Positions 24,098 through 28,607 of a DNA stretch of 64,000 bases are shown one piece after another. The stretch spans positions 544,001 to 608,000 of the forward strand of contig CAWHWQ010000005.1 in the NCBI GenBank assembly GCA_963833095.1, given 5' to 3'. Origin of the DNA: Vulcanimicrobiota bacterium (GTDB lineage: Bacteria > Vulcanimicrobiota > Vulcanimicrobiia > Vulcanimicrobiales > Vulcanimicrobiaceae). Within the stretch, counting starts at the first letter, position 1. Each line of letters starts with the position of its first letter. The notes under the pieces were generated by a model. The model did not search any database. It saw nothing but the letters and a program-made list of their open reading frames with translations, and was not told the DNA's origin. Made by a program: the position numbers and the translations under genes.

Positions 24098-25231
24098 TTA
24101 TTTCAAGGCGGTGACATTTGCCGTCTCCGACAGGACGGTCACCGCGGCGTGCGCTTTGTCGTAGCCCAGCGCATAGGCATAGATATCGACCACGCGCGTT
24201 GTGCCGGCCCCAGGAATTCCGCGTAACAGGACGTGGTTCGAGTGTCTTGGGAGGGTCACGGCTCCGATGAATGTTTGACCGGCGCGTGCTACGAGTGTGA
24301 CCGCCGAGGCGCCGGGAGTGAGGACGTCCACGCGAATCGGGTGTCCGCCGTAAACGGTAGACGGTACGCGCAAGCCAAGGTCGCGCACGACGGCCGCCGC
24401 CTCCGGCGCGTCGGCGATCTCGGACGCGGTCGGGTGATCGTGATGGAAAACGTAGTAGAACACCCCACGATGCCGCGGTGTTGGCGTTGGCTGCGGGTCG
24501 GGCGCGTCGCTCGAGAGATCGGCTACGATCATCGTCGAGGCTTGCTTGTGCGTGCGCGCGATCGCGTGCGTACTTGCACGATTGCGATGCTGCGCCGTTT
24601 GCTGCACGGATGCGACGGCGACGCCATGAAGCGCGATGGTGTTTGTCTCGTCGATGCGCGTCGAAAGGCCTACGGTAAGCCGATCGTAGAGCGCCATCAC
24701 ATTGCGGACGTACGCTTGCGTTTCGCTGTATGGCGGAATGCCGCCAAAACGCTCAACTGCGCCCGGGCCCGCATTATATCCCGCGAGGGCGAGTCGATAG
24801 CGTTGCATTTGCGGATACGCGGCATAACGATCGAGCAGGCCACGCAAATACCGCGCGGTTCCATTCAAATTGTCGTGCGCCGAGAATGCGTCAACGCCGA
24901 GTCCGGCGGCCGTCCCCGGCATCAGCTGCCCAAGACCACGAGCGCCAACCGGCGAAACTGCGTACGGATGCCACGACGACTCCGTCGCAACAAGGGCAAC
25001 GAGCAAGCGTGGATCCAATCGGTAAAAGAGCGATTCGACGCGCACACGATCGGCAAGCTCGCGGCTCTGCGACGCTGAAAGATTGGGATTAAACGTGCTA
25101 AGGACGCGCGCGTATTCTGCGAGGCGGGAACTCGTTATCGTGGTTGAAGCAGCCGACGCAGGCGACGCCGCTGTGCTGAGCAGAACAGCCAGCGCGCCGG
25201 CGACAATATGCCGCGGGCGAGCAACTCCCAT
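24098..25231 (-). CDS. Secreted lytic transglycosylase (SLT) with C-terminal extension
   Basis: Signal peptide; ATESS, GARGLGQLMPGTA, AGYNAG, ETQAYV. Confidence 0.88.
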   Translation of the reverse strand: MGVARPRHIVAGALAVLLSTAASPASAASTTITSSRLAEYARVLSTFNPNLSASQSRELADRVRVESLFYRLDPRLLVALVATESSWHPYAVSPVGARGLGQLMPGTAAGLGVDAFSAHDNLNGTARYLRGLLDRYAAYPQMQRYRLALAGYNAGPGAVERFGGIPPYSETQAYVRNVMALYDRLTVGLSTRIDETNTIALHGVAVASVQQTAQHRNRASTHAIARTHKQASTMIVADLSSDAPDPQPTPTPRHRGVFYYVFHHDHPTASEIADAPEAAAVVRDLGLRVPSTVYGGHPIRVDVLTPGASAVTLVARAGQTFIGAVTLPRHSNHVLLRGIPGAGTTRVVDIYAYALGYDKAHAAVTVLSETANVTALK

Positions 25232-25298
25232 GCGTAGCTAATCGGTTGCGTGCTTTGAAAATTCTAGAGCGAGAAGATGTTCGCTCGGCAGCTCGCTT

Positions 25299-25976
25299 TC
25301 AACGCGCCGAGGGGCACGTCCGTCGCAGCAAGCAGGCTCCGCAAAGCGGGTTGGTTCGTTTGCACAGCTCCCGGCCGTGGGCTCGCAGAACGGCATAGGC
25401 GTCGACCGCCAAGGGGCCTATAATCGCCGCCTGGGTTAGAGCGGCGACGCCCGCGCGATAGGCCGCCGCATAAGGCTGGCCGCCCTGCACGACGTGGAGG
25501 CGTTCGAGCACCCGCAGTCCGTTGGAATCCAGCGCCGGCGCCTCCGAGAACCCGCAAAGCAGTAGCACCTTGTCGGCGCCAGGGTCAGCGATCCCCGGAA
25601 ATCGTTTGAGCAGGGTTCGTCGCGGCTTTTCCGCGAGCGCGGCCAGAGCCCCGGCCAGGTTGCCGCCGGCGTATGCCGCGGTATGCTCCGCGCAGGCGAG
25701 CACCTTGGCGGCTCGATGGGACGGCTGCATCCCGCCATCGCGAATCGCCGCCTCGATCTTTTTTGCTCCCGCACCGATCAATGTTGCGGGCGTGATGCCT
25801 ACGGCCGTTCGCAGGCGCTCGAAGGTTTGGGCGCGCCGCTGGTCATCCACGAGATACGCGCAGTTCTCCCAGACGATCAGTTCAAACGGCTCGGTCGGCT
25901 CGGGCAATTCGACGGTGCCATACTGCGTGCGCAGGGCGTCGATGATCGCTCCCGGTTGACCGGGGACGGGCTTCAT
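25299..25976 (-). CDS. HhH-GPD superfamily DNA glycosylase with Fe-S cluster
   Basis: FPGI...GAD, LDSN..RV, HGRELC...P.CGAC.L...CP. Confidence 0.8.
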   Translation of the reverse strand: MKPVPGQPGAIIDALRTQYGTVELPEPTEPFELIVWENCAYLVDDQRRAQTFERLRTAVGITPATLIGAGAKKIEAAIRDGGMQPSHRAAKVLACAEHTAAYAGGNLAGALAALAEKPRRTLLKRFPGIADPGADKVLLLCGFSEAPALDSNGLRVLERLHVVQGGQPYAAAYRAGVAALTQAAIIGPLAVDAYAVLRAHGRELCKRTNPLCGACLLRRTCPSAR

Positions 25977-25984
25977 GCTATCGT
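25956..25984 (+). promoter_or_regulatory. Sigma70-type promoter for leader peptide/ssu operon
   Basis: TTGACC (25956-61), 17-nt spacer, TGn-TATCGT (25979-84); ATG 7 nt downstream. Confidence 0.7.
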
Positions 25985-25991
25985 CGGGTCC

Positions 25992-26075
25992 ATGTCCAAT
26001 CTGCACATTATGTGTCACATGTGCCCCGTCCCGGCGCCCGATCGGCGTAGGTTGGCTTCTCGCATCTCGAAATAG
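25992..26075 (+). CDS. Putative leaderless Met/Cys-rich attenuator leader peptide (MSNLHIMCHMCPVPAPDRRRLASRISK)
   Basis: ATG at predicted TSS, MCHMC cluster, contains antiterminator arm, ends just before terminator. Confidence 0.7.
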   Translation: MSNLHIMCHMCPVPAPDRRRLASRISK

Positions 26076-26097
26076 CGCGACACGAATTTCGATGAAC

Positions 26098-26136
26098 GAA
26101 GCCCTCCGCCGATCCGGCGGAGGGCTTCTTGCTTTC
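26098..26136 (+). terminator. Attenuator terminator upstream of ssuA-like gene
   Basis: 14-bp perfect stem gaagccctccgccg/cggcggagggcttc, 3-nt loop, followed by ttgctttc. Confidence 0.8.
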
Positions 26137-26159
26137 CCATCTCACCAGGAGGCACGCCA

Positions 26160-27149
26160 ATGTATCCCACCCGACGCGAGGCAATCGGCCTTGCTACCGC
26201 CGCACTCGCCACCCTCGCCCTTCCGGGGCGCGTGCGCGCAGCGGATAAACTCGACGCAATCACCGTCGACTACGCCTACTACAATCCGGTCAGCCTGATC
26301 CTCAAGCAAAATGGCTGGCTCGAACGCGCACTGGCAGCTAACGGCACCACGGTATCGTGGGTGCTCTCCCTCGGCTCGAATAAGGCCAATCAATTTCTTG
26401 CTTCGGGTTCGGCGCAATTTGCGTCAACGGCGGGAAGCGCAGCGCTGCTTGCGCGCGCCAACGGCGTCCCGCTGCACACTGTCTTTCTCTATTCCCAACC
26501 CGAGTGGACGGCGATCGTCGTCGGCAAGGACTCGAAGCTCTCGAACCTGCGCGACCTCAGAGGCAAGAAGATCGCCGCGACCCGCGGCACCGATCCATGG
26601 TTTTTCTTGCTGCGCTCGCTCGCATCGGTCGGCCTTACCTCGAACGACGTGCAGATCGTTGAACTCCAGCATCCCGACGGACGCGTTGCACTCGAGCGCG
26701 GGCAAGTCGATGCGTGGGCCGGGCTCGATCCGCACATGGCCGCATCGCAACTCGACGCCGGGTCGCGGCTCCTCTATCGCAACATCGCCTGGAACACCTA
26801 CGGTGCGCTCAACGTGCGCGAAGATTTTCTGGCGGCACATCCAGACGTCGTGCGCATCGTGCTGCGCGCCTACGAGCTCGGGCACACATATGCCAAAGCG
26901 CACCCGGCGGAGACCGCGAAGATTCTTGCCGACGCTTCAAACCTTGATCTCAAGGTCGCAAATCTCGTCATCGACGACCGTACGCGGTTCCCGGATCCGG
27001 TTCCGGGAAAAGCCTACATCGACTCCGTTGGCGGGACGATTCCCGTGATTCGCTCCGAGCAACTCGTCGCCGACGTCGGTTCGGTGCAAACCGCGCTCGG
27101 TTCGCTCGCCGATCCTGCGCCTGCGCGCGTCGCACTGGCGCATGCGTAA
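26160..27149 (+). CDS. ssuA: Aliphatic sulfonate-type ABC substrate-binding protein
   Basis: Tat-like signal TRREAI; DYAYYNP, LGSNKA, KKIAATRGT, VDAWAGLDP; SD aggagg. Confidence 0.82.
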   Translation: MYPTRREAIGLATAALATLALPGRVRAADKLDAITVDYAYYNPVSLILKQNGWLERALAANGTTVSWVLSLGSNKANQFLASGSAQFASTAGSAALLARANGVPLHTVFLYSQPEWTAIVVGKDSKLSNLRDLRGKKIAATRGTDPWFFLLRSLASVGLTSNDVQIVELQHPDGRVALERGQVDAWAGLDPHMAASQLDAGSRLLYRNIAWNTYGALNVREDFLAAHPDVVRIVLRAYELGHTYAKAHPAETAKILADASNLDLKVANLVIDDRTRFPDPVPGKAYIDSVGGTIPVIRSEQLVADVGSVQTALGSLADPAPARVALAHA

Positions 27150-27894
27150 AGCACTCCTCGCCTGGCTCGTTCCGGCGGCGATTCTTCTCCTCTGGATCGT
27201 CGCCGGTCACGCGCACTGGTTTGCTCCCGATCAGCTCGCGCCGCCCTCGCGCGTTTTGGCCGAACTCGGATCGCTGTGGCAACGTGGGCTGCTGCAGCAA
27301 GACATTCTCGCTAGCGCAGCACGCGTGTTCGCGGGATTCGCAATCGCGCTCGCGCTTGCGGTGGTGCTTGGGACGCTCGTTGGCTTGAATCGCACGGTCG
27401 AACGGGCGATCGATCCCACGTTACAAGCGATTCGCGCGGTGCCGTCGCTTGCGTGGGTACCACTGCTGTTGCTCTGGCTTGGCATCGGTGAATCGGCCAA
27501 GATTACGCTGATCGCGATCGGCGCCTTCTTTCCGATCTACGTGAATTTGGTGGCCGGCATTCACGGAGTGGATCGCAAACTGGTCGAGGTCGCACGCATT
27601 CTCGGACTGCATCCATTCAGCGTCGCCGTACGCGTCGTTTTGCCGGCCGCGTTTCCGTCATTGCTCGTTGGAGCGCGCATCGGTCTCACGCAGGCATGGC
27701 TCTTCCTCGTTGCCGCGGAATTGCTCGCATCGACGCGCGGACTTGGCTTCTTGCTCACCGAGGGACAACAAATTTCGCGGCCCGACGAAATTCTCGTGGC
27801 GATTCTGTTGCTCGCTATCGCAGGCAAGCTGTGTGAGTCCGGTATGCTTGCGATCGAGCGGCGCACGACTGCCTGGACGGACGGGCTGCGATGA
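27142..27894 (+). CDS. ssuC: Sulfonate/nitrate-family ABC permease
   Basis: VPSLAWVPL, FFPIY.N...GI, LVAAEL. Confidence 0.82.
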   Translation: MRKALLAWLVPAAILLLWIVAGHAHWFAPDQLAPPSRVLAELGSLWQRGLLQQDILASAARVFAGFAIALALAVVLGTLVGLNRTVERAIDPTLQAIRAVPSLAWVPLLLLWLGIGESAKITLIAIGAFFPIYVNLVAGIHGVDRKLVEVARILGLHPFSVAVRVVLPAAFPSLLVGARIGLTQAWLFLVAAELLASTRGLGFLLTEGQQISRPDEILVAILLLAIAGKLCESGMLAIERRTTAWTDGLR

Positions 27895-28607
27895 GCACGA
27901 TTCGCATCGAAGACTTGCGCGTCGCGTTTGGTGAACTGCGCGTGCTCGACGGACTTTCGCTCACAGTAGAGCGCGGCGAGATCGTTGCCGTGCTCGGGCC
28001 CAGCGGCTGCGGCAAGAGCACGCTGCTACGAGCGATTGCGGGGCTGGACGTTCATCCGCTCGGCACGATCGCCGTCGAGGGTGACGTCGGCTATGTCTTT
28101 CAGGAGCCGCGGCTTTTTCCGTGGCTCAACGTCGAGAAGAACGTTCGTTTCGCCGCGCGCACGCCCGAAGAACGCGAACGCGTCAACGCGGTGCTCGAGC
28201 TCACCGGATTGCAAGACGCTCGAACAACGTTGCCCAAGGCACTCTCGGGCGGCATGGCCCAACGCGCCGCGCTCGCCCGCGCATTGGTGCGCAAGCCGTC
28301 GGTGCTTCTGCTCGATGAACCGCTGGCTTCGCTGGATGCGCTGCGCCGGATGCAATTGCAAGAGGGGATCGCCGAGATCATCGCCGCCGTCGATGCAACA
28401 GCTATTCTCGTAACACACGACATCGAGGAAGCGCTCTACCTCGCCGACCGCATCGTCGTGCTGGGCGGCTCGCCCTCGCGTATCGCGCTCGAAATCACCA
28501 TCCCAGCGCATAAGCGTCGCAACCGCGACGCGAATCTCAACAGCGAACGCAGCACGCTGTTTCACGCATTGTCAGGTGAGGAGACCCGAGAACAAGAATC
28601 GGCATAA
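27891..28607 (+). CDS. ssuB: Sulfonate/nitrate-family ABC ATPase
   Basis: GPSGCGKST, FQEPRLFPW, LSGGMAQR, LLDEP, VTHD. Confidence 0.82.
   Translation: MSTIRIEDLRVAFGELRVLDGLSLTVERGEIVAVLGPSGCGKSTLLRAIAGLDVHPLGTIAVEGDVGYVFQEPRLFPWLNVEKNVRFAARTPEERERVNAVLELTGLQDARTTLPKALSGGMAQRAALARALVRKPSVLLLDEPLASLDALRRMQLQEGIAEIIAAVDATAILVTHDIEEALYLADRIVVLGGSPSRIALEITIPAHKRRNRDANLNSERSTLFHALSGEETREQESA

Follow-up and report, generated by a model that had tools for sequence, protein, structure and literature searches.

Introduction

Attenuation by leader peptides is textbook knowledge, and the amino acids for which it is known are Trp, His, Phe, Leu, Thr and Ile/Val; classical attenuators are trpL, hisL, thrL, leuL, pheL and ilvL of the enterobacteria together with the actinobacterial trp and ilvB leaders. 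Genes for Met and Cys, in the bacteria studied so far, are governed by S-adenosylmethionine (SAM) riboswitches, T-boxes or repressors, and the ssu leader of B. subtilis reportedly contains a terminator, which van der Ploeg et al. are said to have described in 2001. Here we analyse a putative attenuator whose leader peptide combines Met and Cys codons. It lies upstream of an ssuACB-type transporter operon of a Vulcanimicrobiota bacterium (GenBank assembly GCA_963833095.1, contig CAWHWQ010000005.1, positions 544,001 to 608,000 of the forward strand), whose phylum is uncultured and abundant in peat and soil. This stretch of 64,000 nucleotides (nt) is referred to as the window; coordinates are those of the window, and features are on its plus strand unless another is named.

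The closest described systems share parts of this arrangement. In the mycobacterial Cys ribulon (Ms5788A; Canestrari et al. 2020, bioRxiv 10.1101/834739, Mol Microbiol 114:93), leaderless small open reading frames (sORFs) are defined by consecutive Cys codons and, in the tested case, control translation by unmasking a ribosome-binding site (RBS). Ms5788A requires at least two consecutive Cys codons (bioRxiv 10.1101/834739), and a 2026 paper (PMC13236596) still treats the mycobacterial poly-Cys sORFs as translation attenuation. The present locus resembles the ribulon in its predicted leaderless sORF as the first cistron, in its putative Cys-codon sensor and in having several sulfur operons each with an sORF of its own. 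It differs in its covarying intrinsic terminator, its admixture of Met codons, the absence of Cys-Cys pairs in the genus, and its phylum; RBS unmasking finds no support here, pairing with the Shine-Dalgarno (SD) sequence being no better than in shuffles. Comparative genomics has predicted Cys-run ORFs before actinobacterial cys and cbs operons (Seliverstov et al. 2005, PMC1262725), and these are similar in placing a short Cys-codon ORF upstream of a sulfur operon. Unlike the leader described here, they lack terminator hairpins, Rho being proposed instead, and no methionine element appears in the sections of that paper drawn on. Finally, an alkanesulfonate transporter operon of bacilli is preceded by the uncharacterised 'ABC-leader' (Naville & Gautheret 2010, PMC2965389); there, too, a sulfonate-type ABC transporter operon has a leader that contains a premature terminator. 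In contrast to the present case, that source, as far as it is drawn on here, describes no leader peptide and leaves the sensing part undefined, and there is no sequence relation between the two.

Compared with the classical attenuators, the locus has in common a short ORF with clustered codons, an intrinsic terminator, a segment complementary to the terminator 5' arm and what appears to be a kinetic choice; modelling of classical attenuation indicates that ribosome position sets that choice (PMC1183508). It departs from them in reading Met together with Cys codons, in a predicted start at the 5' end without an SD sequence, in that the controlled genes form an uptake system rather than a biosynthetic pathway, and in offering no convincing anti-antiterminator. 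No published classical attenuator for either amino acid was found: the full-text literature searched, outside which most subscription journals lie, held no terminator-type leader attenuator for Met or for Met plus Cys, nor an Eremiobacterota attenuator of any kind. An initial annotation of the window had not recognised a mixed Met+Cys attenuator on an ssu-type operon as described, and our search agrees with this.

Results

A Met/Cys leader ORF and a terminator ahead of ssuA

We propose, with a probability of roughly 0.7 and judging from sequence, that the region between 25956 and 26160 is a ribosome-mediated (trp/his-type) transcription attenuator that senses Cys/Met supply upstream of the ssuACB-type operon. 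Observed directly are a promoter-like site, an ORF, complementary segments and a terminator, together with their conservation and the covariation of the terminator. A pattern scan of 25000-27000 returned a single sigma-70-like site, TTGACC-N17-TATCGT (shuffle mean 0.5), which consists of a -35 hexamer TTGACC (25956..25961) and, after a 17-nt spacer, an extended -10, TG-c-TATCGT (25976..25984). Seven nt past the -10 lies ATG 25992, the start of a predicted leaderless leader-peptide ORF, MSNLHIMCHMCPVPAPDRRRLASRISK, of 27 codons plus TAG (25992..26075, stop codon 26073-26075). Its codons 7-11 (26010..26024) read ATG TGT CAC ATG TGC (M-C-H-M-C). Given the frequencies of Met (1.67%) and Cys (1.05%) in the long ORFs of the same genome, at least four Met/Cys codons in five would arise by chance with a probability of about 2.7e-6 per 5-codon window.

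The ORF overlaps region 2, the 5' strand of the putative antiterminator (GATCGGCG ... GCTTC, 26040..26059), which is complementary to region 3, the 5' arm and loop of the terminator (26098..26114). RNAduplex gives this pairing -24.6 kcal/mol, versus -13.0 +/- 2.8 kcal/mol for 300 dinucleotide shuffles (z -4.1). The intrinsic terminator hairpin (26098..26128) has 14 base pairs (bp), 11 of them G-C, a 3-nt loop and an energy of -29.3 kcal/mol. It is directly followed by the U-rich tail TTGCTTTCC (26129..26137) and lies 31 nt 5' of the ssuA ATG at 26160. The initial annotation had pointed to the promoter with its ATG 7 nt on, the 27-codon ORF with four sulfur codons in five, the complementary segments, and the 14-bp terminator with its U-rich tail before an ssuA-like SD; each of these parts is present and reads as it had been described.

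The following course of events would account for this arrangement. Transcription would begin at or beside ATG 25992, with a ribosome then loading at the 5' end of the RNA. Should charged tRNA-Cys or tRNA-Met be scarce, the ribosome would stall at codons 7-11 (26010-26024), with its leading edge about 12-15 nt downstream, hiding 26028-26038 and freeing 26040-26059. The hidden segment, candidate region 1 (26028..26038), could pair locally with 26044-26056 and is a possible, weakly supported anti-antiterminator. The freed segment would pair with 26098-26114 once the latter is made, with a middle hairpin that bears the sORF stop codon (26065..26095) nested inside; the terminator could not form in time, and RNA polymerase would continue into ssuA. 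If Cys and Met were plentiful, the ribosome would cross 26040-26059 to the stop at 26073. The antiterminator would then be disrupted or never form, and the more stable 14-bp terminator would end the transcript at the U-tract near 26130-26137.

Conservation within the genus

An ssuA ortholog is present in 16 of the 17 other genomes of the genus (88-96% identity), and one at 60% identity occurs in another family. Among the 17 genus loci, a count that includes the window, every one that holds the ortholog (17/17) carries an sORF with an invariant M-C-x-M-C. The x codon varies (CAC, CAT, CAG or TCG, coding for H, Q or S), as does codon 6, Ile6 in the window (ATT, ATC, GTT or GTC), and in five congeners the second Cys codon shows a synonymous change between TGC and TGT. 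Invariance of Met and Cys amid varying neighbours, including x, argues for selection on Met/Cys codon identity. Consecutive Cys codons occur neither in the window nor in any of the 17 congeners, all of which read M-C-x-M-C. Terminator and RBS region are likewise kept in 17/17, as is the segment GATCGGCGTAGGT(T/C)GGCTTC.

The sORF is 27 codons long at 16 of the 17 loci. The remaining one, L015, has 20 codons and is the most divergent congener leader (MRKPHIMCSMCPMTPTLGSA); it has only H-I-M-C-x-M-C in common with the others. There the conserved GATCGGCGTAGG is read in another frame, and the sORF ends at a TAG inside the conserved GGCGTAGG. Its middle hairpin has a different sequence at the same place. 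This change of frame over retained nucleotides indicates that the downstream half of the sORF is conserved as RNA and not as protein.

Conservation of the element begins at the extended -10 (TGnTAnnnT in 17/17), and TGnTAnnGT is followed by an ATG 7 nt later at all 17 loci. The -35 is absent from six (L004, L008, L009, L014, L015, L016), at which the extended -10 remains. At L008 the SLT and HhH-GPD genes that precede the leader in the window are missing and the leader abuts the upstream region of the NUDIX gene; differing upstream sequence of this type is common to five further congeners (6/17 in all). Since upstream genes and -35 are lost in 6/17 while everything from the -10 on is kept, the element appears to travel with ssuA as a unit.

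Conservation beyond the genus

Sampling one genome per species gave 80 ssuA loci. Nearly all of the congener loci and of the 30 that come next in identity (58-68%) derive from metagenome-assembled genomes titled Candidatus Eremiobacteraeota / Vulcanimicrobiota. Comparison of the regions upstream of ssuA orthologs, along the lines suggested in the initial annotation, found the Met/Cys upstream ORF conserved not only in 17/17 congeners but also, as a Met/Cys-rich sORF with a terminator (at least four Met/Cys in seven codons, then a terminator), at 23 of these 30 more distant loci. The seven exceptions are L034, which has a Cys-only sORF; L049, with a single Met-Cys; L032, with a terminator and no sORF; and L030 (titled Binatia), L056 (titled Thermomicrobium), L057 and L058 (titled Chloroflexota), the last four having neither feature. 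Among 39 proteobacterial and Chloroflexi ssuA loci, from which the congener L068 was excluded, none has a Met/Cys sORF plus terminator.

The sORFs of other genera differ in sequence and are nevertheless rich in Met and Cys (MTKAVSCLMSMCICCLPCGDRRASA, MTALMCCCCCIMCLPTGAGAALH and MTSQAMMSMCMAMCCTSRCR, for example), with motifs such as MAMCICC, MSMCC, MCMCC, MCCCCCIMC and MMSMCMAMCC; most of these genera carry CC to CCCCC. We tabulated 22 other-genus leaders, six of 28 having been missed by the -10/terminator search (L031, L032, L037, L038, L049, L052). TGnTAnnnT is present in 22/22 and TTGAC in 20/22, at a spacing of 17-18 nt. In all 22 the start codon lies 7-11 nt past TGnTAnnnT, which leaves no space for an SD sequence. 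In the window's own genome, TGnTAnnnT is enriched 6-9 nt 5' of where long ORFs have their first start codon (21 occurrences versus about 1 per position). The tabulated sORFs have 15-27 codons, the terminator follows 22-47 nt past the stop, and a T-rich tail is found in all of them.

RNA pairing and ribosome geometry

We aligned 20 leaders, the window's included (alignment A2; L034 and L055 were omitted as too divergent). The terminator is 95.4% paired in A2 and 7 of its 13 pairs are changed on both sides, which none of 500 shuffles reaches; sliding its 3' partners cuts pairing to 42-60%. Antiterminator helix 1, G(A/G)TCGGCG with CGCCGA(T/C)C, is 90.8% paired. Across the 22 leaders the duplex between region 2 and the terminator arm has a mean z of -1.5 and is better than shuffles at p<0.05 in eight.

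Spacing supports a role for the ribosome. Region 2 starts 9-15 nt (mode 12) past the last Met/Cys codon in 20/20 leaders, so that its onset would coincide with the leading edge of a ribosome paused there, and its nucleotides are retained even where the frame differs. The distance from its end to the stop is 10-16 nt in 18/20 leaders (the window has 25 nt and L015 has 0), close enough for a terminating ribosome to cover it. When the transcript is cut at 26114, the minimum-energy fold is the antiterminator, which encloses the 26065-95 hairpin, at -39.0 kcal/mol without a ribosome and -29.5 kcal/mol with a ribosome masking the Met/Cys codons; a ribosome mask on region 2 abolishes it. In these folds the antiterminator forms as had been predicted, and the terminator covaries. 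The geometry of trp/his-type attenuation that the initial annotation had recognised is supported by the invariant M-C-x-M-C, the 9-15 nt spacing, the terminator covariation and the agreement of the folds.

Other pairings were considered and set aside. The region-1, middle (-7.7 kcal/mol, z about 0) and SD-sequestering hairpins are not claimed on energy, as none of them beats shuffles. A long-range pairing of codons 2-4 (UCCAACCU) with AGGUUGG appears in RNAalifold and in the full-length minimum-energy fold, is absent from the co-transcriptional snapshot, and is left as unproven.

Related leaders before other sulfur and methionine genes

The window's own genome has a second Met/Cys leader, ahead of hom-metY-metX: MFAPTMMTCSMCIIQMNKAGTVIGSTV (MFAPTMMTCSMCIIQMNK...), with the motif M-T-C-S-M-C, TGATAGCCT followed after 7 nt by ATG, and a terminator. 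It is kept in 11/11 further congeners whose locus includes the 5' end of hom (5 of 22 hom loci lack the gene's 5' end). In another genus, hom is preceded by a far Met/Cys-richer leader, MHAMVSAMSMSMTSMFCMCCCMRAAGLLRT.

A covariance model built from A2 has matches in 81 of 151 sampled genomes of the phylum. This figure does not give the number of sulfur leaders, since other amino-acid attenuators and bare terminators are matched as well. Individual reading covered 49 match loci (29 best-per-genome and 20 secondary). Met/Cys leaders account for 29 of them, and the genes 3' of these are ssuA (9), metY (5), sulfite reductase (4), hom (4), 3'-phosphoadenosine 5'-phosphosulfate (PAPS) reductase (2), a TauE/SafE permease (2), the cystathionine gamma-synthase family (2) and an unannotated ORF (1). 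Codon content differs between operons: the two TauE/SafE leaders are Cys-only, one PAPS-reductase leader has Cys and no internal Met, and the two cystathionine gamma-synthase-family leaders (L148, L169) are Met-rich with 0-1 Cys. The rest of the 49 loci hold Leu/Val/Ile leaders upstream of ilvB, leaders of aromatic type, one for aspartokinase and one of Thr/Ile type upstream of hom.

The same build before sulfur and methionine genes in related genomes suggests that the set would act as a ribosome-run sulfur regulon. On balance, we favour the view that Eremiobacterota run their sulfur and methionine genes in this way, through near-leaderless leader peptides, each operon having its own mix of Met and Cys codons (Cys only for TauE and cysH, Met only for cystathionine synthase, mixed for ssuACB, metY, hom and sulfite reductase) and each mix being coupled to a terminator. 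This would be the first classical attenuation for Met and Cys, taking the place of SAM riboswitches, T-boxes and repressors. If so, the present locus matters mainly as part of a ribosome-operated sulfur/methionine regulon that spans the phylum, with sister elements before most steps of sulfur assimilation and Met synthesis. The amino acids read by classical attenuation would be extended to Met and Cys, and a codon mix of two amino acids would tune each operon. Function could also be assigned from sequence alone, genes behind such leaders, such as the SsuA-type transporter and the ORF at L170 (below), being marked as sulfur-related.

Putative attenuators of other kinds, likewise of leaderless type, are present in the same genome. 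A leader that contains 11 consecutive Thr codons, MISMFVSTTTTTTTTTTTVVRCRLT, precedes thrC-thrB, together with a terminator (L019, that is G000 C4:205001-213000, at about 2010-2210). A Leu/Val/Ile leader, MILASLLLVVLALISRSSPNRLGLTTA (C5:455540-455700, minus strand), with TTGACA-N17-TGGTAGGGT, a terminator and a U-tract, lies directly 5' of an acetolactate synthase (ilvB-like) gene and has homologs in L138, L144, L163, L165 and L176. Partial matches of the genus alignment in an nhmmer search of this genome proved to be these other attenuators (thrCB, hom, ilvB) rather than extra copies. A scan of the genome for Met/Cys sORFs with a terminator gave 15 distinct candidates, of which the ssu and hom leaders alone are convincing in promoter, terminator and gene; the remainder, for instance MSRCCCGRCCFGLVPVWSRSR on C8 and MKMCCCR on C2, look like chance. 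We also considered the Met:Cys ratio as a divider between ssu and met leaders and rejected it, because the leaders of one ssuA clade (L031, L037, L038) are just as rich in Met as those of hom.

Three further observations were made along the way. At L170 (G163 C3:259745-261235, minus strand) an ORF of 341 amino acids (aa) lies behind the Met/Cys leader MNACCEKMACCMSPLLGSA and its terminator; the ORF has no Pfam or NCBIfam match and is a candidate sulfur-related gene. L164 and L174 (G156, G021) have a conserved leaderless-type sORF, MSFQNALC(I/T)RLCSNVPPR.., and a terminator, with no obvious amino-acid run and no downstream gene recognised. A single 749-aa frame at L019:5582-7831 matches MetY over residues 8-244, in its N-terminal half, and MetX over 423-737. 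Either MetY and MetX are fused here, with a middle that has diverged, or the assembly is frameshifted.

Observations that weigh against attenuation

A number of results count against the proposed attenuator or against parts of it. The antiterminator is conserved with almost no covariation, and the column-wise test is not significant. Its helix 1 has one compensated pair, its helix 2 is just 40.7% paired in A2 with one of three pairs changed on both sides, and between 31 and 359 of 500 shuffles reach the whole-antiterminator measures. The duplex between region 2 and the arm is no better than shuffles at p<0.05 in 14 of the 22 leaders, and neither is the region-1 hairpin of the window (26028-26056; -11.5 kcal/mol, z -0.19). 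In the window's genus the stop lies 25 nt past helix 1, so that a ribosome at the stop would mask helix 2 (GCUUC) and the middle hairpin but not helix 1. As a result, the two halves of the mechanism put forward in the initial annotation fare differently: geometry agrees with a stall that frees the antiterminator, whereas the claim that translation to the stop favours termination is weaker here, with 25 nt, than in other genera, with 10-16 nt.

Whichever ribosome mask was applied, the full-length leader adopted the terminator fold, and the choice between the two states must therefore be kinetic, as in known attenuators. Because the antiterminator forms without a ribosome and the anti-antiterminator is weak, untranslated transcripts might read through, unlike in the classical design. 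The sensor consists of two Cys and two Met codons only, with no neighbours of the same amino acid, and a shortage of Met would also hit initiation on a leaderless mRNA. Moreover, the transcription start site, the RNA 3' end, translation of the sORF and the response to sulfur are all points that we infer.

The cargo of the transporter is a further difficulty. The product of ssuA (26160..27149, 329 aa) belongs to the SsuA family (TIGR01728 SsuA_fam, 199.7 bits against a cut-off of 163.5; Pfam NMT1), in keeping with the initial annotation of a sulfonate transporter; the word sulfonate, however, has no other source than this membership. The alkanesulfonate monooxygenase SsuD (TIGR03565) was found in none of five genomes, namely the window's own (80.7% complete) and four near-complete congeners, and the assimilatory sulfite reductase hemoprotein (NF010029) in none of six genomes of the genus (G000, G001, G002, G006, G009, G010). 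Without SsuD and sulfite reductase, the route from sulfonate through sulfite to sulfide seems unavailable. The TauD dioxygenase is present in two of the four near-complete congeners, in which its gene has no leader of its own. The substrate is thus doubtful, the genus being without the canonical sulfonate route, and the transporter may carry another sulfur compound. Whatever the cargo, the leader marks the ssuACB-type operon as sulfur-related.

Alternative explanations

The alternative that survives best, improbable as we consider it, is a sensor of Cys alone, in effect the mycobacterial poly-Cys idea joined to a terminator. The Met codons would then be passengers, retained for RNA pairing (GCACAU with AUGUGC) or as spare in-frame starts. 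The sole tested precedent does sense Cys (Canestrari et al., bioRxiv 10.1101/834739), and CACAU and AUGUG can indeed pair in the window, but this pairing is lost in other genera while the Met codons are kept. Cys exceeds Met in the ssuA leaders of most other genera, with 80 Cys versus 46 Met among the 510 internal codons of the 22 leaders (15.7% and 9.0%). Relative to genome frequencies, however, Met is itself enriched 5.4-fold, beside 14.9-fold for Cys, and within the genus both Met codons are invariant in 17/17 while flanking codons vary. The operons also speak to both sides: two TauE leaders and one PAPS-reductase leader do without internal Met, whereas the leaders of the cystathionine gamma-synthase family are Met-rich with 0-1 Cys and those of hom are Met-dominated. 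Enrichment, invariance and the operon-wise mixes together argue for Met codons that are chosen per operon and are functional rather than passengers.

It is quite unlikely that the sORF instead controls translation of ssuA by RBS unmasking, in the manner of mycobacterial Ms5788A, with the hairpin serving a mainly structural purpose. The closest tested system does work in this way, and the sequence before ssuA would permit it: a conserved pre-start motif, CTTTCCCATCTCACCAGGAGG (26132..26152), includes the SD AGGAGG (26147-26152), its CTTTCCC...GGAGG pattern is strongly conserved, and the U-tail/CUUUCC can form seven pairs with the SD, all of them invariant. The resulting hairpin is weak, though (-5.6 kcal/mol, z 0.06 against shuffles), and has no link to the sORF. 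The motif occurs once in the window's own genome and is kept 5' of ssuA across the phylum (L031-L059) and at L113. It is retained, with its hairpin, even at L018/L057, a locus that has neither sORF nor terminator, and it is also found 5' of hom in G018. In addition, the marks of intrinsic termination, a GC-rich stem and a U-tract, are present in all 22 leaders, as the proposed transcription attenuator would have it.

Very unlikely, too, is a metabolite- or protein-binding RNA, or a DNA operator at the palindromic CACATTATGTG, with the ORF incidental to either. CACAT-T-ATGTG is a perfect palindrome just past the -10, and sulfur and Met genes of other phyla are usually under SAM riboswitches, T-boxes or repressors (PMC1262725, PMC2965389). 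Yet the palindrome is broken in 4 of the 17 congeners (by I to V changes and CACGT) and absent in other genera. A search of 25000-27000 against Rfam, with E up to 10, gave chance-level matches only (best 19.7 bits, to a microRNA model), so that no family rises above chance in the window leader, and L008, L015, L044 and L031 had none at gathering score. Moreover, what is conserved across genera upstream of region 2 is codon content and not sequence or fold, and the start codon keeps to 7-11 nt from the -10.

That the real product is the short terminated RNA, acting in trans as a small RNA, or the 27-residue Cys/His/Met peptide with a CxxC-like metal or redox site, control of ssuACB being secondary, has reported precedents in rnTrpL and peTrpL of Sinorhizobium and draws on the C-x-x-C spacing of M-C-H-M-C and the M-T-C-S-M-C of the hom leader, but can be set aside as highly improbable, since the C-terminal half is not conserved as protein (L015 uses another frame and stops 7 codons earlier), other genera lack CxxC spacing (CICC, CCCCC, MCMCC), and the element is always accompanied by a downstream sulfur or methionine gene.

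Neighbouring genes

Downstream of ssuA, the operon continues with an ABC permease (27142..27894) that is nearest to SsuC (NF008470, 178 bits, under the cut-off; Pfam BPD_transp_1) and an SsuB-like ABC ATPase (27891..28607; Pfam ABC_tran, with all NCBIfam matches under their cut-offs). The convergent gcvPB comes after it. On the other side, the SLT lytic transglycosylase and HhH-GPD genes (24098-25976) separate the NUDIX gene from the ssu leader. The HhH-GPD glycosylase-like gene is divergent, on the minus strand, and its most likely ATG is at 25976, so that its start probably overlaps the -10 region of the leader.

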